Assembly: GCA_013265495.1 (NCBI GenBank)
Contig: MU058066.1
Span: 1-46,509 of the forward strand
DNA: 46,509 bases
Reading direction: 5' to 3'
Source: Vicugna vicugna
Taxonomy: Eukaryota
The notes beneath the pieces were generated by a model, which was not told where the DNA came from, did no database searches, and worked only from the letters and a program-made list of their open reading frames with translations. Positions 4,168 to 46,509 of this stretch are shown here, in pieces. The translations under genes and the position numbers were made by a program. The number at the start of each line of letters is the position of its first letter. The first letter of the stretch is position 1.

Positions 4168-6335
4168 AATTTGTCCTTTCTCTTGTTGATGTGGTGTGTC
4201 ACGTTGATTGATTTGTGTATGTTGAACCATCCTTGTGCCCCTGGGGTGAATCCAACGTAATCATGGTGTATGATATTTTTAATGTTTGTTGGATTCTATT
4301 TGCTAATATTTTGTTAAGGATTTTTGCATCTATGTTCATCAACAATATTGGCCTATAGTTTTCTTTTTTGGTGGTGTCTTTGTCTGGCTTTGGTATTAGG
4401 GTGATGGTGGCTTCATAGAATGAGTTTGGAAGTGTTCCCTCCTTTTCAAACTTTTGGAAGAGTTTGAGAAGGATCAGTATGAACTCTCCTTTGTATATTT
4501 AATAGAATTCCCCAGTGAAGCCATCTGATCCTGGACTTTTGTTTGCAGGGAGTTGTTTTTTTTTTTTTTTCCTGATTCTATTTCACTTCTAGTGATTGGT
4601 CTTCTCAAGTGATCTATTTCTTCTTGATTCATTTTTGGTGAAGTGTATGTTTCTAGAAACTTGCCCATTTTTCTAAGTTGTCCAATTTATTGCCATATAG
4701 TTGTTCTACCCAGAAGTCTTATTGCTTCTTTTTTGAAGTACAGACCCAGAATTACTAGAGCATTACTGAAGAAAAAGAATGAAGCTAGAAGAATAACCCT
4801 CCCAAACTTCAGGCAATACTACAGAGCAACAATAATCAAAACTGCATGGTATTGGTACAAAAATAGGCAAATGGATCAATGCAACATAATAGACAACCCA
4901 GAATAAATCCACAAACTTTCAGTCAATTAATCTTTGACAAAGGAGTCAAGAACATAGAGTGGAGTAAAGACAGTTTCTTCAGCAAATGGTGTTGGGAGAA
5001 CTGGATAGCTGCATGTAAATCAATGAAGTTAGAACACTCCCTCACCCTGTACACAAAAATAAACACAAAATGGCTTAAAGACTGAAACATAAAACAAGAC
5101 ACTATACACTTCTTAGAAGAAAACATAGGCAAAATATTATCCAACATAAATCTCAGCAATATTCTCCTAGGGCAGTCTACCCAAGCAATAAAAATAAAAG
5201 CAAAAATAACAAATGGGACCTAATTCAACTTATAAGCTTTTGCACAGCAAAGGAAACTATAAGCAAAACAAAAGGACAACCAACAGAATGGGAGAAAATA
5301 TTTGCAAAAGGGCTTAATCTCCAGAATATATAAACAGCTCACACAACTTAATAAGAAAAAACAAACAACCCAATCCAAAAATGGGCAGAAGACATAAACA
5401 AGCAATTCTCCAATGAATATATACAAATGGAGGCACATGAAAAAATGCTCAGTATCACTAATTATCAGAGAAATGCAAATCAAAACTACAATGAGATATC
5501 ACCTCATACCAGTCAGAATCACCATCATTCAGAAGTCCACAAATCATAAATACTGGAGAGGGTGTGGAGAAAAGGGAACCCTTCTACACTATTGGTGGGA
5601 GTGCAGTTTGGTGCAGCCATTATGGAAAACAGTATGGAAATTCCTCAAAAAACTAAAAATAGACTTACCATATAATCCAGCAATCTGATTCCTGAGCAAA
5701 TATCCAAAGGGGACTTTATAAAAAAGGATATATGCACCCCAACGTTCATATCAGCACTGTTTACAATAGCCAAGACATGGAAACAATGTAAATGTCCATC
5801 AACAGATGACTGGATAAAGATGCTGTGCATATTTATACAATGGAATACTACTCAGCCATAAAAATAATAAAATAATGCCATTTGCTGCAGCATGGATGAA
5901 CCTGGAGATTATCATTAAGTGAAGTAAGCCAGAAAGAGAAAGAAAAATACCACATGATATCACTTATATGTGGAATCTTAAAAAAAAAAAAAAAGACAAA
6001 CTTATTTACAAAACAGAAACTGACTCACAGACATAGAAAACAAACTTATGGTTACCAAGTGGGAAGGGGATGGGAAGGGATATATCAGAAGTTTGAGATT
6101 TGCAGATATTAACAATATATATAAAATAGATAAACAAGTTTATGCTGTACAGCACAAGGAACCATATTCAACATCTTGCAGTAACATATGGTGAAGAAGA
6201 ATATGAAAACAAATGTATGTATGTTCTTATGTGAGTGACGTATTGTGCTGTACATAAGAAATTGACACATTGTAAAATGACTGTACTTCAATAAAATGTA
6301 TTTTTAAAATTTTAAATTAAAAAAATAAAAAATAA
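4168..6335 (+). mobile_element. 5'-inverted L1: ~4168-4705 antisense ORF2 piece joined to ~4735-6335 sense ORF2 3' end, 3'UTR and A-rich tail
   Basis: Minus ORF 4474..4668 [29 protein letters not shown]. Plus ORFs [70 protein letters not shown] and A-rich end near 6290-6335. Confidence 0.9.
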
Positions 6336-7516: not shown

Positions 7517-7637
7517 ATGAGAGCATCTTATGCCCCTCGCAAGGAGCCTCCATCCTGCCCCAAGAGTCCCCCTTTTCCTTGGCGCTTCGTGGGGATTCTT
7601 TTGCTAGCCCTAGTGCTACCAATACACATGATCTCTG
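7517..7637 (+). CDS. CD46: CD46-like exon 1, signal peptide MRASYAPRKEPPSCPKSPPFPWRFVGILLLALVLPIHMIS
   Basis: AAAATGA start, long n-region plus hydrophobic core resembling bovine/porcine CD46 leaders, phase-1 donor G|GTAGGA at 7638. Confidence 0.92.
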
Positions 7638-10600
7638 GTAGGAGCCGGGAGAATGACCCACGTAGTAAACGAGCGTGTAGGGGAGGACGGAGGGTGGAGG
7701 GACCATCGCTTGGCGGCTCGGGGCCGAGGTGCCAGGCTGGCGTCCTTAAGAGTTAAGGTGGAAGGCATGGCCAGAGTGTCCCTGAGTCTTCCTGTTGGTA
7801 CCCACGGGGGAGGGGACCACATTGTGATCCAGGAGAAGATTTGCTTGGAGGTGGACGCTGAGTGTTGTGGGCTGGTGATCACCGCAGGAGTTTACCCAGG
7901 GCCAAGCTGGGTCCCTAGCAGAAGCTTGGAGGGTGTTTTCAGGACTGAGCCAGCTCAGGACAGGAACGTGGACCTGGTGATGGTGGGGACTGCTTGCTCC
8001 TGAGTACCCAGTGCTGCAGATGTTGCCAGGCTGGTGCTGTGCCTATGCGGAGGGTTTGCCTGTGGCCCTGGGTGGGGTGACACCTTATGTGTAGGGTGTT
8101 TGTGCCCTAGTCAGCTGAGACTGGGGAGCCTGGGCCGAGTGTACCCCAGTATGTGCTTTGTGGAAGTTGTCAGCCCAGTCGTGCCCAGGGTGGGACAAGG
8201 AAATGAACTATTTGCAGCATGGGGCTTAACAAAACAACAAAAAAAAAAAAAAAAGACAGCCAAACCTAGTGAAAAATGAGATCCTGAAAATGAACTATAA
8301 ATGATGTCCATGTATTTTTCCCATGTAGCTGAGAGACTAAAGCGGAGGTTCATTCACTAAGTTTGTTTTTCCTTTTTCGTGTTTCATAGAATTGAGTAAA
8401 TACTTTAAATATATGCTAAAAAAGACATGCTTAATGTAGAAAACATTCACAAGGAACAAGGAACACCCATTTTAAAAACTTTGGTATATTTCCTCCTGTC
8501 TTTATATGTAGATGTCTTTCCAGGCCCAAGTTATTTTTAGGATCCTATTACATATACAGTTTGTATTCTGCATTTTTTCCTTAGCAGCATTCAGCCCCCA
8601 AATATTTGCTTTCTATATGCCAGGTCCTGAGCTGGTCATGAGGATGCACTGGTGAGCAATAACACACCATTCCTATTTTCATGAGCCTTCGTCCACTATT
8701 TGTCTGTGCACACACACCGAATACATGCAGGGGCTGTGTTTTGCTCTCTGTGAGATCCCCGGTGCCAGGCACACATTAGGAAATCAAATATTTGCTAAAA
8801 TGTATTGGGTGTGGCAGACAGGAGGCAAAACATAATACTAATGAATATGTTATAACCCAAGAGAGGCCTGGAGGAAGGGAGCAGGATTCTCTGACAGCAT
8901 ATAACAAATGCCTGGTGCAAGGGGAGACTTTTCTGCTCATCAGACAGCCCAAACTCTGCCACTTTGGTGCTTCTACACTTGCTGTTCCCGTGGCCTTGGA
9001 ACATTCTCCTCTGCCTCTTGGGTTATTGACTCCTTCTTATTCTTACTTGGTTGTGATGCCCCCTCCTCAGAGGGACCTTCTCTGAGCCACTATTTCCAGT
9101 AGAAATACACACTCTAGCTCAAATCCTCCCTAACTGGTAGTCACCCTCCCAAACTATGTTTTCTGTTCCCTCCTCACTAGACTGCAGGGATCTTAGCTGT
9201 CTTGTCACACTGGTGGTTCCACATGACCATTTTCTTTTGCCGCATTATCAACACTCTTGTATCACTATCAAATACTAGAAAATTAAAGGTAACATTTGGC
9301 TGGGGCTTACAGCCCAGGAGAAACTTCTCCTTCCAGGAGGAAGGTTCTCTAAAGACCCATGCTTAGGATGGCCTTTCTGTGGTGCCTACAAATCTAAGGC
9401 CAGGGCAGCTGAGGTTCAGAAAGGATCAATCTTCCCCTGATTGTAGGCTCCTCAGGGCTCACAATTGTCCAGTCTTGCTTGTTACTGAGTATTTGAAAAC
9501 TTCATTTCTAGGTAGGAGTGGTGCGGGTGATGGAACAGTGGTAGTAAGAAGAAATCACAAGGAATATTTGAAAGAATAATAATGTTTAGAGCAAAAAGCT
9601 TAAAGGTAGAAGTTGAAGGAGATGATGAAAACTATTAAAATGGAGGAAAATGGATGAAGTAAAATGAATAGGATGCATCATGGAAGGTAACAGAACTAGA
9701 AATGAAAAGGAGGAAAACAAGTTTAAGTTTGAGGCTGAAAGGTGAATCAGGAGAGATAGGAGACTTAGATAAAGTACCATCGAGAACCCACTATACCATG
9801 TAGGGAAAGCATTGGATAAAACAAACATTTCGCTGAAGCAGCTCACAATGAGGTTTTGTAAGCAGACAGTGTTGTACCCGGGAGCCCTGCCACCTCAGAG
9901 GTAGTTGCCAAATGGTAGGAGATCACAAAAGGGACCCTTTGTGGAATTTCAGGGTGAGTCTCATTGCTCCATAATGGGTCTGCGTTTGGGGACAAAACCC
10001 GCAGTCTCCGTTTATGTGTGATCTCTTCTGCTTATTTTTGGTGTTTTGATTCTTCCTAATGAAAGAAGCCAAGATCAATAAGTGCTTCCACTGTAGTTTC
10101 TTGGTTTCCTTACTGTACGTATTACAGTACAAGGAGAACAGTGCGTATTGGTCAATTGCTAGGTTACCATAATTAATACTGGCAGACAGGAAACAAAACA
10201 AATTAGGTAGTCAAATCTTCCTCCAGTGCATAAAGCTTTAAGATGATTAATTTCAATATTAGATTCATTATATTCTGTTCTTTACCATTGTTTTCTGTTT
10301 GACAGCAGTGGTACCTGAAAACCAAAGTCTTGTGAATAGCTATGATGCAGAACATACTGGGCTAGGTATCGTGGCCACATGGATGAGCGGAGCCCACTAT
10401 ATTATGTATTAAACACAAAAACACGTGATAGTGAGCTGAGAGAGCCATGCAGAGGAGAGTCCAAGAGAAGGGGCTGGTCACTGCCTCCCCACAGGAAGCA
10501 GAGGGTACTTCCTAGAGGAGATGTTGAGTGGATTATGTCAAGGAAGATGAGAGCTGAGCAGGGGTTGCTCCTGAGCAGGAGGAAGGGTGCTCAGAGCAGA

Positions 10601-21499: not shown

Positions 21500-21697
21500 A
21501 GATTTCATGTGGACTGCCTTCAAACATAAAAAATGGAAAATATACCAATAGCTCCAAGAATGTATTTCACTATAAAGAATAAGTGACTTATAGTTGTAAT
21601 CTGTTAAATAGACCAGATCAATATTCACTTGTTGGAGAGAGCGAGCTTACTTGTTCTGCACATGGCAATTGGAGCAGTGAAGCTTCTAAGTGTAAAT
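21500..21697 (+). pseudogene. CD46: CD46-like CCP3 exon with in-frame stop: KISCGLPSNIKNGKYTNSSKNVFHYKE*VTYSCNLLNRPDQYSLVGESELTCSAHGNWSSEASKCK
   Basis: 198 nt, phase 1-1, all four Cys and the Trp present. TAA at 21580-21582. The donor is a weak T|GTAATA. Confidence 0.95.
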
Positions 21698-22214: not shown

Positions 22215-25200
22215 GAGAAAACAACCACTGAATAACAGGAAAATACTCTTTCTAAGTATATATGGAACATTCTCTAAGGTAGACGGTAAGGTTATTTTTA
22301 ACAAATTCCAGAGGGTTGAAATCATTCTGAGTGCATTATCTGATCACAATCGAATGAATGTAGAATTAAAACAGAGATAATCTAGAAAATTCCCAAATAT
22401 TTTAAAATTATGCAAGACACTTCTAACTAACCCATGAGTCAAAGATGAAGTAACGAGGACATTAGAAAGTGCTTTGAGCTAAATAAAAATGAAAACACAA
22501 CATATCAAAATATTAAAATTTATGTGATACAACAAAAGCATTGCTTAAAGGGAAATTTATATCATAAAATACTTATGTTAGAAAAAATAAAAGTCTCAAA
22601 TCAATATTCTAAGCTTCCACCTTAAGAAACTAAAAAAAAATTAAAAATAAAAAAGCAAACAAACACAAAACAAGAAGAAATAAAATGATTATAAAGATAG
22701 ATAGAAATCAATGAAATTGTAAAGAGAAAGTAACAGAGAAAACCAATGAAAACAACCCTAGTTCTTGGAGCACATCAATGTAATAGATAAAGCTACAGCT
22801 GGGCTGACAAAAAAGGAAAAGACATTTAATAAATCAGAGAAAGACAAAAATCTGTGTGTTATCACTTATACGTGGAATCTAAAAAGTACAACAAACTAGT
22901 AAATATAACAAAAAAGAAGCAGACTCACAGATATAGTGGTTACCAATGGAATAGGGGTGAAGGGGAAAGACAGGGGTGGGGAAGTTGGAGGTACAAACTG
23001 TTGTGTGTAAGACAGGCTACAAGGATGTGTTGTACAACATGGGAGTATAGCAAATATTTTGCAATAACTGTAAATGGAGTGTAACCTTTAAAAATGTATA
23101 AAAATTAAAAATGAATGAGTTTTTCCAAAAAAGAATGAAAAAGAGAACAACACTAAATATTCTTCAGAATTTAAGGGGATAATAAGGGAATAGTACACAA
23201 ACAACCTTATGTCTATAAATTTGACAACTTACGTGAAATTGACAAATTCCTTGAAAGATAAAAAGTACCAAAATAACTTCACACAAAGATACAGGTAACC
23301 TGAATAGTCCTATATCTATTAAGGACATATAGTGTGTTGTTAAAAACCTTCCCACAGTGACAACTGAGGCCCTGATGGATTCCTTGGGGAATTGTACCAA
23401 ACATCGCAGAAATAAGTAATAGCACCTCTACACAAACTCTTCAAGAAATGTAAGATTTCATGAGAACATTACCCTGATACCTAACTCAGACAAAAACATT
23501 GACAGAAAATTATAAACAATATCCTTAATGAATATAGAACTTCTTAACAAAATATCAACGAACCAAATCCTGCCATATATAAAGATAAAAATGCATCATA
23601 AACAAATAAATTTATTCCATAAATGCAAGATTGGTCAAATTAAAAAAATTAATCAGTATTATTTACCATATCAAGAGAGTATAAAGAAAAAATTAATATG
23701 ATCATCTCAATAAAGGCAAAAAAAAGAGCAACTGGCAGAATTCATCATCTTTTCATTATAAAACTTATTGGCAAACTAGAAATAGAAGGAAACTAGCTGT
23801 CTCAACCTGATGAAAGGAATATCAGAAATCTCACAACCAACATTATACTTAAAGGTAAAAGACTAATTTCTTTCCCCTTCAAGGTAAGAAGAAGTGTATC
23901 TATACTCACCACTCTGTTCAATATTGTACTGGAGGTCCCACCCACTCTGGTAAGACAAGAGAAAGAAAAAGGCATACGTATGTTGGAAAGAAAGATAAAA
24001 TAGTTTCTATTCATTTATGACATGATTGTCTACAAAGAAAATTCTGCATACTGAAGTTTTAGCAAAGTTGCAAAATATAAGATCAGCATACAGAAATCAA
24101 TTTAATGCCTATATACTAGTAACAATTCATTACAAATTGAAAATCTTTAAAGTACTATTTATAACCCCAAAGCATGAAATAGCTGCATCTAAATCTAACA
24201 TGTGAAAGATTTAAATAGTAAGAAAGTATTAAACACTAATAAAAGAAATTAAACAAGATCTTAATAAATAAAAAGATATTCATTGGCCATGAAAAGGAGA
24301 TTCAAAATAATAAAAATGTAAATTCTTTGTAATTAATCTATAAATTCAACACAATCCCAATAACAATCCGAGTAGAGCTTTTTTTATTGACGTATAGTCA
24401 GTTAAAATTGTCAATTCTCATGTACATTATAATGTTTCAGTCATACATATATATACATGTATTTGCTTTCATATTCCTTTTCCTTATAGTTGACTACAAG
24501 ATATTGAATATGGTTCCCTTTGCTATACAGAAGAAATTTGGGTTTTTTAATTCTGTTTATATGTAGTAGTTAGTATTTGCAAATCTCAAACCCCCAGTTC
24601 ATCCCTTCCCACCATCTTTCCCCCCCAGGTAATCATAAGTTTGTTTATTATGCCTGTGAGTCTCTTTCTCTTTGGTAGACAAGTTCGTTAGTGTCTTCTT
24701 TCTTTCTTTTTTTCTTTTTTTTNNNNNNNNNNNNNNNNNNNNNNNNNNNNNNNNNNNNNNNNNNNNNNNNNNNNNNNNNNNNNNNNNNNNNNNNNNNGAT
24801 CTCCAGACCATGTTACTACAAATGACATTGTTTTATTCTTTTTCATTGCTGAGTAGTATTTCATTGTATAAATACACCACAGCTTCTTTATCTAGTTATC
24901 TGTCAATGGACATTTTTGTTTCCATGTCTTCACTATTGTATATAGTGCTGCTGTGAACATTGGGATGCATGTACACTTTTTTAATTTGAGTTCCCTCCTG
25001 ATACATACCCAGGAGTGGGATTTCTGGGTCATATGATAAGTCTATTTTCAGTCTTTTGAGGACTCTCCATACTATTTTTCTTAATGGCTGCATTACACTA
25101 CATTTCCCCCAACAGTGTAGGAGGGTTCCCTTTTCTCTACAACCTCTCCAGCATTTATTGTTTGTGGACTTTTTAATGATGGCCATTCTGACCAGTGTGA

Positions 25201-26830: not shown

Positions 26831-27087
26831 TAAGCAGTCAGATATACATATAATTGAAGGTTCAGAAAGAGAGAAGAGAAGGCAATATAAAAAGTCATTT
26901 GAACAAATATGTACCAAAATATTTCAAATTTGATCCAAACAACAACCTTACCCAAACCAATCCAAGAAATGTAGTGACACACACTGTCAGGATAAATAAG
27001 AATTTTAAATTTACCAAGAAACTCCCAGCAAACTAAATACATCATGGCAAAAAAAAAAAAAAGCCTACTGAAAACAAAACAAAAACA

Positions 27088-27185
27088 GAAGGAAGGAAGA
27101 GAGGAAGGAAGGAAGGAAGGAAGGAAGGAAGGAAGGAAGGAAGGATAAAAGAAAGGAGAGAGGGAAGGAGGGAAGGAAGGAAGGA
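27088..27185. repeat. (GGAA)n-rich purine tract within an L1 ORF1-like relic (~26860-27520)
   Basis: Visible GGAA repeats. Confidence 0.9.
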
Positions 27186-28226
27186 AACAAGAGAGGGAGA
27201 AAGAAAAGGAGTCAGCGAGAGAGTAAAAGGTATTATATTGAGGACATACCTACCTAACCACACCTTACCCAGGCTGACTGCTCTTAAGGACCTGTGAAGA
27301 ATAGAAGACAGTAATTTCTGCTAATGTGCTGAAAGAAAAATAAAGCACTTCAGCTAGAATTCTCTGTCAAGGAGAAACCTTTCAAAACTGAAGAGGAAAT
27401 AAAAACAGTTTTAGATAAGCAAAAGCTGAAAAAATTCGTCATTAGCTGACCTGAACCCAAGGATTGATAAGGAAGTCCATGTACTTGATGGAAATTCAGA
27501 TCCACAGAAAAGGAGGAAGAACACGCTTCTGGTTTAAAAGGCTTTATGATATCTGGCCCTCATCTATTGCTCACATTTATTCTGATAAGACGTTCTCTGG
27601 AACTCACTGCCCAGCCCAGTGTTTTTTGGTTTTGGTTTCTTTCTTTTCCAACTTCTGCAAAAGTAATCCTCAAGTCAATCTAGAGGGCACGACCTGTGTT
27701 TTACTTCTGAAGAAGTAGAGTAGAGTGGGGAATACCAGAGTACACCAGCGTGAAGCCTAAGCATTTTGCATGGCTGGATTTTTCAACTTTTAAGTTTGAG
27801 TATTTAAAGTATTACCTTCTCCAAAAAGTCTTTGCTACCTTTCTAAAAGAGCAGGGAACTCTAACTAGTGTCACCATGATCTTTAAAAAAACAGTCCTAG
27901 AGCTAGAGTATCAAAAGTTGCATTTGAACTTACCTCCAATTTGTATCTGATAGTCAGATCTTTCTTAAAACTTGTCAGTAATGGAAAAAAAATTAGGAAA
28001 GACAATAAACTATAGTGGCAGTCTGCTCTAGGTGAAAAAACATTAGATTTCTGTAAATCTTTTTGCCTAGAATTCAAATGCATAAATAAAGTCTTTTTTT
28101 TTTTTTCAATTAGCATCTTGCCTTTCATTCCTTGCCTCTTTCTTCCCACGGGAAATTACTGCTTGGCACTAGTTTTTCTATGTGAAATTACCTTTCTTTT
28201 AATTCTGAAATTTCTCCACTTTTCAG

Positions 28227-28409
28227 TGGTCAAATGTAAACCTCCAGTACTTGAACATGGAAAAGCAATATCAGAAATTAGAGAAGTTTTTACCTACAAA
28301 GACGTGGTGATACTTGAATGCCTCCAGGGTTTTTACCTTAATGGCAGCCATGCAGTCTTCTGTGGTGGTGAAAATACTTGGGAACCTGAGATGCCGAAGT
28401 GTATTAAAG
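28227..28409 (+). CDS. CD46: CD46-like CCP4 exon: VKCKPPVLEHGKAISEIREVFTYKDVVILECLQGFYLNGSHAVFCGGENTWEPEMPKCIK
   Basis: TTTTCAG acceptor, G|GTACAA donor, 183 nt, intact sushi domain (within ORF 28118..28459). Confidence 0.97.
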
Positions 28410-28816
28410 GTACAACTGTTTGTCTTTTTTTTTTCCTGTCTTTTAACTTTCTCTTTTAGTTCTTATTTTGTTCACATTGATAAGAATAAGTGAAAAGAAG
28501 CAACCTTAGTACTTAACTCGGACATGTATCCACTTCCATGGCAGATACATGACAAAATTTACATACAATTCTGCTGCTGTGGTTTCGCATGCTGTTAGAG
28601 AGTCAGCACATTGCTTGTTAGCACATTACACAGGTGTATTAATACCTCTTGTTCAGTATTTTAATGTATAAAAAGAGATAGGAATCACTTTTCAGAATAA
28701 ATTGAAGCATGGGCATTTTTACCTTGAAATAGGTCAAAAATGAGAGGCATAATTCATATAAATGAGAGGAAAGCAATAATCCCAAGTGGTTGATCCTACA
28801 TTATTTTGTTTTTCAG

Positions 28817-29190: not shown

Positions 29191-30632
29191 CTTAACAGCA
29201 TCCCCTTTACAGAGTATCTTGCAGGTCCAGGACTATGGTTCATTTTCCAGACTGCAATCAGTTGGCTTCATTTTACAAACTGGGAAATTTCTGTTGTCAC
29301 CTGATTAAAACCAGTATTTCTACCACACACACCATTCTGCACCGCATAGAGTTATTATTTTTCTCTCTCCTGGGCATTCTTATTTGGCAACAGAGGGTAA
29401 ATCTCATAGCCACTGAATGGCAGGAAAAGTCTTTATTTATTGAAATGAACTGGGTGATTTCTGGACGGGACTATTGATCAGCTGCTCTGCTTAAGTCTTG
29501 AGAGACTATTTGAATGTGATGGAAGGAATTATCTTCCTGATTTTAGGGATTGCACCTCTGGCTTCTCTTTACAGCAGCAGCAGAAGCACGAGACAAGAGC
29601 AAGAATGGGTAGAGCACGAGCCTGGGCAGAGGGTACTCAGGGTGCTGGGGGGGCTCTGCTCACTCAAGTAACATCACTGCTGTGAGTGTACTTCCCTGTT
29701 TAATGAAGGTGTGGAACTCACAGCTCCATGACTGGCTTTTGATGTGTTTGTCTTTTTCCTGTTGTCCTAATATTTTCAAGGATTGAGGGGAATTATTCAT
29801 ATTAACATGGTAATTAGAGCTCCTTTTTAGAACAGCTGTAAAGCTGGTACCCCGTATCGCCCTAGAGTACCGGGGTGAGGTGAGGGCTGTGAAGATTTGG
29901 GGGGAAAGAGATGATTTTTATTGGACCATATATAAAGAAGTTATACTCATTGACCCATCCCTGTTAGTCACAGGGTCCTAGTGAGAATATGCACTACAAT
30001 ATACTATGTTTGTTGATATGCTGTTTTGAAAAAGTGGACCATAAACACTTCTTAAGGACTTAGAAAACATTGATACAATTTAGTGTTTGAAGAAGAGAGA
30101 AATTGTTTGTGAGAAAAAAACTTATGAAAAGAAGAAAATACAGGGATTTAAAAAAAATCAAAATCAACTCTCCTTATGAGATTGCTAATCATTTTTTTAT
30201 CATCAGTTTGAGACAGACTATACCAAAAGCATCAGTAGCACCATAAATGATGTTAGGTCAGGTTTAAATGTGCTAATACGAAAAAATGTCTAAGAAATAC
30301 TATGCCAAAAGACAAACACAGAAAAAGATACAAATTATGGAATGTAATAGTGCCTGACCCTTTTAAAGAATACTGAGTTTTATGATTTATAGTTGACTAC
30401 AGGGATTTCCATTATAAAATACAAAGTTGTGTTGTACATTTTATGCATACATCCTCACCTACATGTGCAAATATACACTTAGACTAAATTCCCAGGAGTA
30501 GACTTGCAAAGTTCTGAGTGTATTGTATTTTTTATTTGAGAAATAATTAACCTTTTTCTAAAATTAAAAAAAAATAGATACATAATTTTGTGTTGATAAG
30601 ACTGATGCATTGAGCCAAATTTAATTTTGCAG

Positions 30633-30680
30633 GTTACAAGCCTACCTATCCAAAGAAGCCTCCAGTTTCAAACTATCCAG
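30633..30680 (+). CDS. CD46: CD46-like STP-C exon: GYKPTYPKKPPVSNYP
   Basis: TTTTGCAG acceptor, G|GTTCAG donor, 48 nt. KPPVSNYP matches CD46 STP-C. Confidence 0.95.
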
Positions 30681-31229
30681 GTTCAGTAACTCTTTATCCT
30701 TCGTATATTGTTAAGAACTTTATAAGGTGATGAGTACAAAATCATGTCTTGCTTAATTTGCATTTCTTTAATTATCAGTGAGATTGAACTTTTTCTTATC
30801 TACATTTATTTATTATATTCTTTCTTACTTTTTCTATTAGGTTTCTTAAATATTTTTCTTGTTGATTTGAACTTATAAATTAAAGCCCTTTTAAGATGAA
30901 GTGAACTTTTTTCCTACGTTTATATTTTAGCCTTATTTTCACTAGTCGGTTTTTTTTTATGATTTTTATACTGTACTATTAGATGTAGGTTGCTTTTTAT
31001 AAATTTTTGTTATATGAGTGGTACACAAATATAATTTTGTAAATTTTCAAACATTGCAGAAGTATGCAGAGTGAAATTAGATCCCCTGATCTTTCTCTAG
31101 CCTATTACCTGAGTTAATCACTGTTAATAGTTTAGAGTGTCTCTATGTATTTCTGTAGATCAAAATCCTTATATGTGTAATTATACATTTAGTTTGGTGG
31201 TTTTTTCCTCTCTTTTTCTTATACAGAAA

Positions 31230-32590: not shown

Positions 32591-32908
32591 GTAATCTCTA
32601 AATCATTTTTAAGTACTCCTCTTTTAATTTTAAGTAGAATCACATTGAATTCCAGGCTAATTTTGAATATACACTGATGATTAGTTTGTTTGCCGTACCA
32701 CAGAATTAGTGACAAGGAACATCAGTGGACAGGAGGAAGAATGGCATTGAATATAAATTTATAATGTTTGACGATGCAGCTTTTAATGAGAGCCATTAAT
32801 ATAATGTATAAGGAATATTAAATTATAATTATAAATTATAATTGTGAATGTGTAGATCTTCAAGACTTATTTAGTCTTTTTTTTTAACCTAGTTCCATTT
32901 TTTTCTAG

Positions 32909-32959
32909 GATATCCCAATCCCAAAGAATTACTGTCACTTGAAGACTTTGAGGAATTAG
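32909..32959 (+). CDS. CD46: CD46-like juxtamembrane (U) exon: GYPNPKELLSLEDFEEL
   Basis: TTTTCTAG acceptor, G|GTATTA donor, 51 nt, GYP.P.E start typical of CD46. Confidence 0.92.
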   Translation, partial: DIPIPKNYCHLKTLRN

Positions 32960-33470
32960 GTATTATTTTAATTATTAACAACCCCACATTATGAGACCTT
33001 AGAGTTAGTTCTACATGGAAATATCATGTTCTAATCATTTGTAGGTAGGGAAGAAACAATGTGTCACAATTAGTAATAATTGACATTTATAGTTATTTTA
33101 GTAGTGCAGACACCATGACAAATGTAAGTGGCAATTTGCATAGATGCACATAGGCCATTTTCTTTAATCTAGTGAATTCTAACTGTCTTAGTAACCTGTA
33201 CTAACTACCCTGACATGGTGGCTAGAGCACAAAACAGTGAAAAATGAGGTTCCTGTTAAGAGTTTCACAGGGTGGATCCTAACCCTGAAAACTGTTTACA
33301 AGGGTTCTGTGATCAAAATGACTTGGTTGCACTAGCAGTCATGCCAAAATTATATTGCCAAACCTTTTTTTTGCTGTAGTGTTTAGATGATCTGATCAAA
33401 ATCAAAGCATAGTTGCTCTTTAGGACCCATACATGCTCAATGTCTTCAACACTGTTCATTTTTTTCTCAG

Positions 33471-33506
33471 ATGTAGGAAGCTTTGCTGTGTATATCCTAA
33501 CAGTAA
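33471..33506 (+). CDS. CD46: CD46-like TM1 exon: DVGSFAVYILTV
   Basis: TTTTTCTCAG acceptor, 36 nt, A|GTAAGT donor at 33507. A second GTAAGT starts at 33503. Confidence 0.9.
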
Positions 33507-34001: not shown

Positions 34002-34239
34002 TTGTTGCCATTTTACTAGTTTTGGTCTGCATGTACAGAAGTCTTCGAGGAAGGAAGCAGCAGGAGAAGGAGAAGAAAGAAGAGGAGGAAAAAGAGAAGA
34101 AAGAGAAGGAAGAGAAGGAGAAGAAAGAGAAGGAGGAGAAGGAAAAGAAAGAGAAGGAGGAGAAGGAAAAGAAAGAGAAGGAGGAGAAGGAGAAGAAAGA
34201 GAAGGAGGAGAAGGAGAAGAAAGAGAAAGAGCAGAAACG
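34002..34239 (+). CDS. CD46: CD46-like TM2/anchor exon expanded by an E/K repeat: IVAILLVLVCMYRSLRGRKQQ-EKEKKEEE-(EKEKKEKE)6-QKR
   Basis: TTTCTTTCAG acceptor, CG|GTAAAC phase-2 donor, 238 nt, open frame (ORF 33974..34243). Confidence 0.92.
34064..34231 (+). repeat. Coding 24-nt x7 all-purine minisatellite (GAGAAGGAGAAGAAAGAGAAGGAG consensus)
   Basis: Seven 8-codon units with mostly synonymous GAA/GAG and AAA/AAG variation. Confidence 0.95.
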
Positions 34240-34999
34240 GTAAACTACAGTGCATTTTCTCTTAGTCTAACCTTTTTACTCTTGACATACTTTTGCGCAG
34301 TTATTATTTGTAGTCCATGTTGCATGCTGTGTGGGTTTTTTTTTATGTTCCTGCATGAGGGTGCTGTCTGAATTGCATTTCATTACTGAAAATATTTTTA
34401 GCTACTTTTCATGTCATTGAACAGGATAAATTTATGCAGAGTTTCTTCAACTATTACAACTGCAAGAAACATTTCAGTGGCATTTGATGTTTAAGTTCTG
34501 CAGTAAACCATGGACTATTATGAGGCCTTCACTACTCTAAGTGTACCCTACTTCCTAGATTGGGCTAGTAGCCAAGATTAAAGTTTAAGTGGTTCATGGT
34601 AGAAACTTTAACATTTGTATTCACTTGCATTTTATGATGAAAATCTCCATTTGTCTGCACAGCTTAGGTAGTAAGTAAGAAGCTATGTAGCCACAATTCG
34701 GTTTCATTTCATTTAGAGTTGTTATCTATATAAGTTAAGCTGTGGAATTAAAAGCAGCATTATTTGATTTCCCTTTTATGTTCTCTTAATTTACTAAGCG
34801 GCAGTAAAACTGATGGGGCTAAAGTTACTGAAAGGGTAATATTTACAAGACATCTCTTTAATTATATCCTTCTCTTTATCTGTAAAAATGAAAAAAAGTC
34901 AGGGGGCTAAGAATAGAAAAAAAGAAGAAAAATTCATATCTACTAAGGAAAACCGAGATGTTAAACATAAAACTTAAATTTTAATGAAATAATTTACAA

Positions 35000-35664
35000 T
35001 TTAATGAAAGACTTAAATCAAAGGCAATAAACATAATGAACATAGACACAAAAGTCCCCCAAAAATGTCATTAATTAAGGAAATTGAGAAAGATACAAAT
35101 AAATAGAAAGATATTTCAGGTTCATGGATTGGAAGAATTCACATTGTTAAAATGCCCATACTACGCAAAGTAATCTACAGATTCAACGCAACCCCCATCA
35201 AAATTCCAATGGCATTTTTCACAGAAACAGAACAAGCAATTTTAAAAAATCTGTATAGAAGCACAAAAGACCCTAAATAGCCAAAGCACCCTTAAACTGT
35301 AAACATCATGCTCGCTGGTGTCAAACTATATTATAATGCTCAAGTAATCAGAACCATATGATATTGACATAAAAGCACACACATAGATCAATGGAACAGA
35401 ATACGGAGCCCAGAAATAAACCTACATGTATAAAGTCAGTTAATTTATGACAAAGGAGGCAAGAATATATGAAGAAAGAACAGTCTCTTCAACAAATGGT
35501 GTTTGGAACTGGACAGCTACATGCAAAAGAATGAAAATGGACCACCATCTTACACTATATACAAAATTGACTCAAAATCTGTTGAAGACTTGAGAGTAAG
35601 ACCTGAAATCATAAAACTCCTAGAAGAAAACATAAGCAGAAACTCATTGATATCCATCTTGGCA

Positions 35665-35721
<57 letters not shown>

Positions 35722-36710
35722 TTTGGATTTGGCACCAAAAGCAAAGGCAAGAAAATCAAAAAGAAACAAGTAGCACTACGTCAAACTAAAAAAGCTTCCT
35801 CATAGCGAAGTAAACCATCAACAAAATAAAAGGGCAATCTACTGAATGGAAGAAAATAATGGCAAACTATGTATTTGATAAAAGGTGAATATTCCAAAAT
35901 ATGTGACCACTCATACAACTCAATGGTAGAATATCAAACAATTTAATTAACAATGGGCAGAGGATTTAAATGGACATTTTCCGGAGAAGACATACAGATA
36001 TCTAACAGGTACATGAAAAGATGTTCAACATTACTAATCATCAGGGAAGTGTGATTCAAAACCTCAATATGATATCACCCCGCAGTATTAAGTTTCCTCA
36101 AAATACCAAAACTAGAACAATCATGCAATCCAGCAGTTCCACTTCTGGGTATTTATCCAAAGGAAATGAAAACACTAACTTGAAAAGATATCTTCACTCC
36201 CATTTTCATTGCATCATTATTTATAATAGCCTAGGTATGGAGACAACGCAAGTGTCCATAGTGTGGAGAGAAGGGGACCCTCCCACACAGCTGGTGGGAA
36301 TGTAGTTTGGTGCAGCCATTATGGAAGAGTATGGAAATTCCCCCAAAAACTAAAAATAGACTTACCATATGATCTTACAATCCCACTTCTGGGAATATAT
36401 ATCTGGAGGGAACTCTAATTTGAAATGATACATGCAACCCAATATTCATAGTAGCAGTATATACAATAGTCTAGACATGGAAGCAACCTAAATGTCCATC
36501 GACAGAGGATTGGATAAAGAAGTTGTGTATATTTATACAATGGAATACTACTCAACCATAAAAAAGAATAAGAACTTTGAATATAAACTCTTAGCAACTA
36601 TCAAACATGAAATACAGTATTAATAACTATACTCACTCTTCTGTACATTACATCCTCATGACTCATTTTATAATTTGAAGTTTGTAGCTTTTGAATCCTT
36701 TCACTCCACA
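35000..36710 (+). mobile_element. Composite L1 ORF2 3' fragments with (ATT)n at ~35665-35720 and a short antisense L1 3' piece at ~36575-36710
   Basis: TCATGGATTGGAAGAATT, ATCTACAGATTCAACGCAACCCCCATCAAAATTCCAATGGCATTTTTCACAGAA, TGGAATACTACTCAACCATAAAAAAGAAT. Confidence 0.85.
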
Positions 36711-38144: not shown

Positions 38145-38217
38145 GAAAAGAGAAGTTACTGCTAGACCCACTGCTCACCAGAAAAGGCCAACCAGCCCAT
38201 CAGTACGGAAGCACTAA
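38145..38217 (+). CDS. CD46: CD46-like last coding exon (CYT2-type tail): (R)KREVTARPTAHQKRPTSPSVRKH*
   Basis: Strong acceptor (TTTTGTCTTGTCTTACAG), phase 2 matching the TM2 donor, 23 further codons to TAA, the length of CD46 CYT2. Confidence 0.88.
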
Positions 38218-45009: not shown

Positions 45010-46509
45010 GCAGGATGTGGACTCAGACAGGCTTCCCAGGTGGCTGAGATGCCACCACTTATGAAGAAGCACTGGCGTGAAATAAAAGTCCCACAGGTGC
45101 TCAGAGGTGGCCACACATCTCCTGTGCAAAAAGCTCAGTCAAGGGGACATAGAGTCCCCAAGTTTACTCCCCTGNNNNNNNNNNNNNNNNNNNNNNNNNN
45201 NNNNNNNNNNNNNNNNNNNNNNNNNNNNNNNNNNNNNNNNNNNNNNNNNNNNNNNNNNNNNNNNNNNNNNNNNNGGCTCCTGCATGTTGCACCTAAATTC
45301 GTCAGTGTTCCTCCCTCTAAGAGCCGCGCGAGCACAGGTTCAGTTAAGCCCACATTCCTGAAGGAGCGCTGACCACGGAGGTGCCGGGGCTGCAGCCCAC
45401 TGGGCACCCAGGTCCGTTTCCTCATCAGCAAGTAGCCTCCTTCGCCCAGGTCTGCAGCCCTGCTCTCTTCTGTGATCTTTTCTCATTCTGTTTTGTGGCT
45501 CATAGAATTCATTCTCATCTTAAAGGGCTACATTTTAAAACCTGTCTGCTGTAACCTACTTGATATTTTCTGTGAAGTAGGTAAGTCTGCACAGCACATT
45601 AACTTTTCAAGATCTCACTTCTCATTATCATGCAATTATGAATGGAAAATTTAACATGAAAAAAGTCATGATAAATTGAATACAGTAATACATTTATTAA
45701 GGTTAGGATGCATGGACAGACTATTCTTAACAGAGGATAATTTAACAGCAACCAATTTACAGAATTGATAGTACTACCACATTTCAGCAAACTGAGGACA
45801 TCAGGAAACTTATAGTTATTTGCTTTGAAAAATCCATTAAATGATCCATTACCTGTGCATAACATATCACAAATGCAGCTAAGGAAGTTCATAGGAAAAG
45901 CGTGATCCCCTCCCCTCTCTCTGCCCATGCATCTTCCAGGAAGCCACAGGCTGTTGCTCACCACACTTGGCATGAGACCTTGAGGCTGCTGCTTTTCCCC
46001 CTACATCATAACCGATTTCAAATGGTGCTAGACAAAATCAGACTCTGAACACCAGGAGAAATTGGTCAGCCTGTGTACGAGATGGGTCAAGTGGTGCTCC
46101 GGGGGGTCCTGCACCTTGGCAGTGCAGGTGGCAATCTGACTTCAGCTGCGACGGCACCTGCAGCTGAACATTCCAGGGCATCTAGGAGCAGGCAGACGGC
46201 GCTGATGTGGAGAGACAGTCCTCCCGGGACACATACCTCCCCCTTCCCTACTGCAATCCAGTACCCAACCCAGCATTGCCCAGTCATGCGCTCAAAGCCC
46301 TGCCAAAGCCCCACCAGGTTATTGCTGGTGGCTGCTGCTACCTGTCCTCAGAAAGATAACAACGCCTGGCCCTGCTCAATCCACCGAGTTCACTTTGGAC
46401 ACAACCCAGTCCCTGCACTGCTGCCTCCACAACCCAACACACTCAAGAGTGACTTTGCTTTTCGAGTTCATTCTTTTTTGAGCCAGCTCAGGCGGCAGGA
46501 GGAGGAGAG
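45010..46509. repeat. Segmental tandem duplication, copy B of the overlap (matches 1-1484)
   Basis: Colinear with the window start on both sides of the 100-N gap. Confidence 0.98.
45996..46083 (-). ncRNA. MIR29C: Second pre-miR-29c copy (mature 3p intact at 46009-46030; three substitutions elsewhere)
   Basis: TAACCGATTTCAAATGGTGCTA intact. Differs from copy A at 46038 (A>T), 46063 (C>T) and 46078 (A>C). Confidence 0.96.

Follow-up and report, generated by a model that had tools for sequence, protein, structure and literature searches.

A glutamate/lysine-coding minisatellite in the membrane-anchor exon of a camelid membrane cofactor protein-like gene and its predicted charged cytoplasmic helix

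CD46 (membrane cofactor protein, MCP), as known from human and from the bovine protein (PDB 8CJV, identified as bovine CD46 SCR1-4), has four short consensus repeats (SCRs), a serine/threonine/proline-rich (STP) segment, one transmembrane (TM) helix with a basic stop-transfer anchor, and alternative short cytoplasmic tails, reported in cattle as 9 and 33 residues long (PMC8741246). Long charged stretches have been described in other proteins. Charged single α-helices (CSAHs) are described as 3-4 acidic residues followed by 3-4 basic residues (PMC7299295), and KEKE motifs are defined (Realini et al. 1994, as quoted in PMC3427183 and PMC10445532) as stretches of over 12 residues in which K plus E/D make up over 60%, W, Y, F and P are absent and five like charges never follow each other. 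In this study, we report the computational analysis of one entire 46.5-kb contig of the 2.03-Gb Vicugna vicugna assembly GCA_013265495.1 (12,405 contigs), namely MU058066.1, positions 1 to 46,509 of the forward strand, hereafter the window. It carries a membrane cofactor protein-like gene in which a tract coding for 56 glutamate (E) and lysine (K) residues lies between the membrane anchor and the cytoplasmic tail. We describe the exon structure and frame of the tract and its wide occurrence in predicted cetartiodactyl proteins, and argue, with a probability of roughly 0.55, that it is a translated coding minisatellite in the TM/anchor exon, generated by expansion of anchor codons and forming a long charged helix or spacer. 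No paper describing an E/K run in CD46-family tails was found in a search of one collection of open-access papers and preprints.

The TM2/anchor exon lies at 34002-34239 on the forward strand and is 238 nt long, with the acceptor ...ttctttcag/TT and the donor CG/gtaaac read directly from the DNA. In the frame from 34001 it gives VVAILLVLVCMYRSLRGRKQQ, 56 codons for E or K only, QK and a split arginine codon that runs into a phase-2 donor. The run is composed of 29 E and 27 K residues, encoded solely by GAG, GAA, AAG and AAA, and an uninterrupted purine-only stretch of 170 nt extends across it. Positions 34064-34231 form seven 24-nt units, the first coding for EKEKKEEE and the following six for EKEKKEKE; Tandem Repeats Finder reported 34062-34236 with period 24, 7.3 copies, 92% matches, 0 indels and a score of 287. 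As its units are highly similar, stand head to tail and have a length that is a multiple of 3, the array has the properties of a coding minisatellite. The units differ from each other at 7 sites, six of them third-position G>A changes that are synonymous and one a first-position change of K to E.

The initial annotation had placed 56 E/K codons between RGRK and the phase-2 donor of a 238-nt exon, had called the differences between units synonymous except one K to E, and had let the frame continue into CYT2; the sequence agrees. The acceptor ...cttacag stands before 38145, the arginine codon is completed as CG+G, and KREVTARPTAHQKRPTSPSVRKH and a stop follow. The same donor also joins in frame to the CYT1-like exon at 34912. 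The further statement that residues four apart carry opposite charges is exact for the ideal unit, in which 100% of the pairs at i+4 are opposite; in the actual 72-residue charged stretch the share of opposite pairs is 81% and that of like pairs 6%.

Three alpaca RefSeq models (P0044, P0046 and P0047) have a tail identical to that of the window, including the seven units, the QKR junction and CYT2, and the exact E/K-tailed protein is already predicted in public alpaca RefSeq models. Model P0044 contains Pfam Sushi in four stretches (120 bits; cut-off 20.7), and it maps to exon 1, SCR4, STP, TM1, TM2 and CYT2 of the window at 99-100%. Exon mapping located an STP segment, a single TM helix, a basic anchor and alternative CYT1 and CYT2 tails in the window, the CYT1-like and CYT2-like exons having the order and phase expected from CD46. 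The gene is that of a type I membrane CD46 paralogue with four SCRs, STP, TM and alternative CYT1-like and CYT2-like tails, and differs from CD46/MCP in being a paralogue and in the 56 added E/K residues between anchor and tail.

The window SCR4 exon is 100% identical to predicted camelid proteins named membrane cofactor protein or membrane cofactor protein-like. Against bovine CD46 (8CJV), the SCR4 of a short-tail gene located downstream of a second E/K copy on contig C7314 of the same assembly scored 118 bits and that of the window gene 82 bits; against human MCP, the values were 99 and 88 bits. Because the SCR4 of the neighbouring short-tail gene matches bovine CD46 better, the E/K gene is, on these SCR4 bit scores against solved structures, a membrane cofactor protein-like CD46 paralogue and not the canonical CD46 orthologue. 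The name CD46 used in the initial annotation holds for the CD46/MCP-type architecture, not for orthology. The second E/K copy of the Vicugna genome lies at the extreme end of C7314 and corresponds to alpaca models P0008 and P0009. Its run of 64 residues reads KKQKKKEEEEKEEKEKKEKE...KENK, its exon has 244 nt compared with 238 nt in the window, and its donor has the same phase and reads gtaaat in place of gtaaac. Across 5,826 nt of surrounding DNA, the two copies share 86.5% identity.

The distribution of the run was assessed in 82 predicted mammalian proteins, a run being counted if it was charged, at least 30 residues long and located after the TM anchor; five cetartiodactyl and two other models had no recognisable anchor and were left out of the counts. 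These proteins are computational models, many of them isoforms of the same genes, made by predictors that favour open frames, and one of the search queries contained an E/K run. A charged run was present in 59 of the 60 cetartiodactyl models with a TM anchor: all 10 from camelids, all 9 from pig, all 19 from cetaceans and 21 of 22 from ruminants. It was found in none of the 15 anchored models from horse, zebra, carnivores, bats, a mole-rat and a colugo. Run length ranged from 34 to 128 residues across the cetartiodactyl models, and an in-frame CYT2-like end (..PTSPxVxKx) followed the run in 32 of the 59. Camelid unit number was seven in alpaca, five in the Camelus models of the window gene and four in a metaclust model.

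Homologues from horse, carnivores and bats have an exon of about 22 residues that ends ...REKKG or ...RKKG, and the R-E/K-K-K-G end of the non-cetartiodactyl exon stands exactly at the site of the run. Because 59 of 60 models of the clade carry a run and none of 15 from other orders does, the comparison of these models indicates that the E/K run is as old as Cetartiodactyla and still changing in length, only the homogeneous seven-unit array being recent. The birth de novo at the anchor that had been proposed for this genome is supported as regards its place, a purine-rich basic anchor, and not as regards its date, the run being widespread in the clade.

Several features of the run are suggestive, and only that, of selection at the protein level. 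All 56 run codons of the window and all 64 of the C7314 copy carry A as their second base. Six of the seven unit variants are synonymous (P=0.007 under equal codon positions). Proline occurs once among 4,046 run residues summed over the models, and an excess of opposite charges at i+4 is found in camelids (0.71-0.81), whales (0.59-0.68), sheep (0.69) and deer (0.65), even though the units differ among these groups.

AlphaFold2, run on P0044 with a 37-sequence alignment, predicted a single helix at residues 326-419 that spans the TM segment and the whole run (358-413). The predicted local distance difference test (pLDDT) score, averaged in blocks of ten residues, was 74-89 for 351-410 and 58 for 411-420, and fell below 50 in CYT2. 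For the exon alone, a helix at residues 2-78 was predicted with a mean pLDDT of 94. The AlphaFold check suggested in the initial annotation thus returned the long helix across TM and run. The Waggawagga scoring table was re-implemented, with published cut-offs of 0.25-0.35 and a maximum reached by (EEEEKKK)n; the ideal unit scored 0.75, and the score did not fall below 0.25 across 64 residues of the tail. A long single helix over the run is, on these predictions, plausible at about even odds.

The run resembles the single α-helices (SAHs), CSAHs and ER/K helices of myosin VI/X and caldesmon in extending over tens of residues, in being E or K at 56 of 56 positions with opposite charges at i+4, and in being predicted as one isolated helix. 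It differs from them, as far as myosin and caldesmon can be compared by description, in that the camelid unit alternates and has mostly like charges at i+3, whereas the CSAH blocks give pairs at both i+3 and i+4. The earlier definition of a SAH by i/i+4 E-K pairing is borne out for the i+4 pairs and is incomplete, CSAHs having blocks of 3-4 acidic and 3-4 basic residues and the present run having 74% like charges at i+3. All of the KEKE criteria apply to the camelid run (56 residues, 100% K plus E, the longest like-charge stretch being the EEEE where units 1 and 2 meet), which is far longer and purer than the quoted examples such as triadin, with 20-33 residues and about 60%. The name KEKE refers to composition and not to a homologous family, and a part in protein association has been proposed for such motifs. 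Yeast Mnn4 offers a natural near-perfect K/E tandem repeat, (KKKKEEEE)n, described as retained in modified form by related species and as helical by prediction (PMC10602382), but in an unrelated protein and with K4E4 blocks in place of the camelid alternation. The synthetic polyampholytes (EKEK)n and (EKKE)n share pure E/K composition and single-residue alternation with the camelid unit, which equals EKEK plus KEKE. They have like charges at i+4, whereas the camelid register flips every four residues and makes all i+4 pairs opposite, a pattern outside the test set of PMC11094733.

Pfam gave, for the tail, sub-threshold compositional matches to families with a TM segment plus a charged loop and one to FAM163, just over the cut-off in a whale protein, none of which was taken as homology; in the camelid proteins Sushi alone was above threshold. 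Among solved structures, the exon gave two weak matches, both to designed coiled coils (E 0.006 and 0.016).

According to the mechanism that we favour, the GAR/AAR codons (R, purine) of the basic stop-transfer anchor would have multiplied through replication slippage in the cetartiodactyl ancestor, and continued turnover would have led to the 34-128 charged residues of today and, in the alpaca lineage, to a near-perfect (EKEKKEKE)7. The run would prolong the TM helix into the cytoplasm by 56 residues or about 8 nm (56 x 1.5 Å), with E-K and K-E pairs at i/i+4. Such a rod could keep the short CYT1 or CYT2 signalling tail off the membrane and offer a KEKE-type polar surface to partners; if the helix is marginally stable, the run may act instead as a stiff, well-solvated polyampholyte spacer. 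We give about one chance in two to this account of how the run works, through a long charged helix, a spacer or a KEKE surface. A bolder version, which we consider unlikely, would make the gene a sperm-expressed cetartiodactyl CD46 paralogue with a single helix of 35-130 E/K(R) residues on its cytoplasmic side. Slippage of the codon repeat would quickly tune the length of this helix, which would measure out the distance from the membrane to the CYT2 tail like a molecular ruler or form there a KEKE rod on which partners such as proteasomes could dock, with (EKEKKEKE)n standing for an 'i+4-only' class of stable helix outside the block definition.

Evidence for expression comes from pig. The pig 375-aa protein P0042, with TM, run and CYT2, was found on three Logan contigs, which are intron-free because each has at most 1,357 nt, and this indirect evidence indicates that the pig gene is transcribed with the run. 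In boar sperm, a 'Predicted: membrane cofactor protein-like' entry is listed by mass spectrometry from a 60-kDa band, with 49.6 in the mass column (PMC6715765). The computed masses are 48.5 kDa for the pig E/K model and 37.2 kDa for the short-tail pig paralogue. The camelid run is probably translated, as the gene models predict.

A number of observations weigh against a selected, helical run. The six synonymous variants are all G>A, and conditioned on G>A the probability rises to P=0.066. The frame can be kept without selection, because gain or loss of 24-nt units changes the length by multiples of 3 and a tract without pyrimidines contains no stop in any frame, and array turnover can remove variants without selection. 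The pig run has no excess at i+4 (0.32 opposite, 0.42 alike). The earlier argument from preserved frame and charge pattern is hence weak as to the frame and leaves as hints the second-position A, the synonymous bias and the i+4 excess. Thirteen toothed-whale models have no CYT2, 12 of them (dolphin, beluga, narwhal, porpoise, baiji) ending in RRR and a stop and that of the sperm whale in RR and a stop, and in models P0003 and P0082 the tract is translated in a shifted frame that is rich in G and R. As to the helix, (EKEK)5 is reported as 7.5% and (EKKE)5 as 0% helical at pH 7 by circular dichroism (PMC11094733). The Waggawagga-type score, which assigns 0.51 to (EK)n despite so low a reported helicity of (EKEK)5, therefore over-calls. 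Pairs at i+3 are 74% alike and 26% opposite in the unit, compared with 26% alike in E4K4; the charge spectrum is strongest at a period of 2.67 residues, exceeding the power at period 8 by a factor of 4.7; and summed pair energies from the Waggawagga supplement, with the like-charge penalty excluded from both, amount to about -0.29 kcal/mol per residue for the unit and -0.60 for E4K4. A KEKE peptide of triadin is described as disordered by circular dichroism (PMC3427183), E/K helicity is reported to depend on order, with 65-67% for (E4K4)2 and 22% for (K4E4)2 (PMC9281390), and structure prediction for charged regions is said to conflict with experiment in some cases (PMC10602382).

The toothed-whale models (P0050-P0060, P0063, P0057) have tails ...KEKEKRRR or ...KKERR followed by a stop; baleen whales and Kogia keep CYT2 in frame. 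The loss of CYT2 in toothed whales may be a shared frameshift, a donor read-through or a habit of modelling.

These observations could be accommodated by a neutral low-complexity expansion, in which the run would be translated and merely tolerated as a disordered polyampholyte, with length, pattern and structure of no importance. The spread of lengths from 34 to 128 residues among lineages and of 4-7 units among camelid models would be expected of it, as would the toothed-whale tails, a frame and openness that follow from the 24-nt unit and purine-only DNA, the mostly disordered (EKEK)5 and KEKE peptides as reported from circular dichroism, and the missing i+4 excess in pig. Such an expansion fits less well with the retention of the run in 59 of 60 cetartiodactyl models, no sampled lineage having lost it. 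It also leaves aside the A at the second position of all 120 run codons in the two paralogues, the flanks of which have diverged by 13.5%, the single proline in 4,046 residues, and the recurrence of the i+4 excess with different units in camelids, whales, sheep and deer; we regard it as possible, if somewhat doubtful. At the RNA level, the GAR-rich tract might act as an exonic splicing enhancer, the E/K residues being a by-product. GAR repeats bind SR-type splicing activators, the 170 nt of uninterrupted purines are made of GAG, AAG, GAA and AAA, and the exon has a donor without the consensus +5 G both in the window (gtaaac) and in the paralogue (gtaaat). However, homologues outside Cetartiodactyla splice an exon of about 22 codons without such a tract, far less than 168 nt would be needed, and the strict second-position A together with the synonymous bias points to the protein level, which makes this explanation quite improbable.

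The window copy could also be a degenerate or mis-assembled duplicate that makes no working protein, or its transcripts could avoid the repeat. The tract is open in all six reading frames because it is purine-only, and its openness is therefore no evidence of coding but could be a by-product of the purines. By tblastn, SCR1-3 of P0044 were not found in the window and no SCR1 exon was present anywhere in it; it carries other SCR2 pieces and an SCR3-like exon at 21502-21696 that has 69% identity to SCR3 of P0044 and an in-frame TAA (..HYKE-stop-VTYSC..). The contig is also interrupted by four stretches of N, including 24723-24797, and carries repeated sequence at its two ends. Against this stand the four-Sushi alpaca RefSeq models that use the window exons at 99-100% (89% at 32908-32964, with two junction mismatches), splice sites and phase that are intact for two alternative tails, and the pig homologue with its run on intron-free contigs, and we hold a non-working protein to be very improbable. 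The missing SCR1-3 exons are most simply explained by an assembly problem around the gap at 24723-24797 and are not proof of a broken gene. A pseudogene in the window, as the absent SCR1 and the TAA in the SCR3-like exon might indicate, was set aside in view of the four-Sushi alpaca models, whose match to its 3' exons is 99-100% apart from the 32908-32964 hit, and of the contig gap.

The features of the window are listed in Table 1. The last 1.5 kb of the window (45010-46509) repeats the first 1.5 kb (1-1484) at 96-97% identity, and these end repeats suggest a tandem unit of about 45 kb, with one MCP-like gene each and an assembly broken inside the cluster.

Table 1. Features of the MCP-like gene in the window (MU058066.1)
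Feature	Position	Strand	Evidence
Exon 1, signal peptide MRASYAPRKEPPSCPKSPPFPWRFVGILLLALVLPIHMISG	7517..7639	+	100% tblastn to alpaca models P0044 and P0008
SCR4 (Sushi) exon of the MCP-like gene	28226..28411	+	100% identity to P0044 and P0001; top solved-structure matches SCR4 of CR1, CR2 and MCP
STP exon GYKPTYPKKPPVSNYPG	30632..30682	+	100% to P0044 and P0001
Juxtamembrane extracellular exon GYPNPKELLSLEDFEEL..	32908..32964	+	tblastn 89%; two mismatches, both at the exon junction
TM1 exon DVGSFAVYILTV, limits approximate	33470..33505	+	100% tblastn to P0044 residues 325-336
TM2/anchor exon: second half of TM helix, RGRK stop-transfer, QQ, E/K run, QK and 2 nt of Arg codon	34002..34239	+	Splice sites read; equals P0044 residues 338-416
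Coding minisatellite, 7 x 24 nt, 56 GAR/AAR codons	34064..34231	+	Tandem Repeats Finder score 287; unit table; second position A in 56/56
Splice donor gtaaac; unspliced frame stops immediately (CGG TAA)	34240..34245	+	Direct read
Alternative CYT1-like terminal coding exon R/IEKKKKNSYLLRKTEMLNIKLKF-stop	34912..34984	+	AG acceptor, in frame with phase-2 donor; used by Camelus models P0001 and P0045, 96% match
Third in-frame terminal exon R/KGKKIKKKQVALRQTKKASS-stop, doubtful, adjoins simple repeat	35742..35805	+	AG before 35742; match to one model, metaclust P0002
CYT2-like terminal coding exon R/KREVTARPTAHQKRPTSPSVRKH-stop	38145..38217	+	Acceptor cttacag/, joined translation; 100% to P0044

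Fragments resembling LINE-1 ORF2 were observed in introns at 35107-36420 and 4200-6100 of the window, and the terminal exon at 35742-35805 used by P0002, which falls within the LINE-1-rich stretch, is probably a modelling artefact. Purine-rich simple repeats also occur outside exons, as a trinucleotide run beside an N gap (2458-2580) and as a GGAAG-type repeat reading KEGRKEGRKEGR (27015-27260), and purine-rich tracts are therefore common in the region outside exons.

The short-tail gene downstream of the C7314 E/K copy is a third member of the MCP family; the run is absent from its TM2 exon, and the gene codes for a 7-residue tail, MRRQEEN-stop, and corresponds to alpaca model P0084. At C7314 ~7,492,570-7,492,640, this CD46-type gene has ATTAAA in place of the GTAAA donor of the E/K paralogues, and the frame therefore continues to the stop and gives the tail MRRQEEN seen in P0084. 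At C7314 ~7,553,000-7,577,000, the STP exon of the paralogue (GNKPPASANPAGPNYSGT and variants) recurs about 10 times in a unit of about 2.7 kb, which fits the alpaca isoforms with many STP repeats (P0008, P0009). The STP array is a second, extracellular, repeat expansion in the E/K gene family.

If the run is merely a tolerated low-complexity expansion, the tract is an ordinary coding minisatellite. If it is a real selected structure, it would make this an unusual homologue of a complement regulator, with a long charged cytoplasmic rod derived from its own stop-transfer codons and kept through the history of camels, pigs, whales and ruminants, and the single-helix field would gain a natural sequence with favourable pairs at i+4 only, a pattern new to the peptide work cited here. 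In cetartiodactyl genomes the MCP family comprises several genes whose tails differ greatly, a point of importance for livestock work in which 'CD46' serves as a virus receptor or sperm marker.

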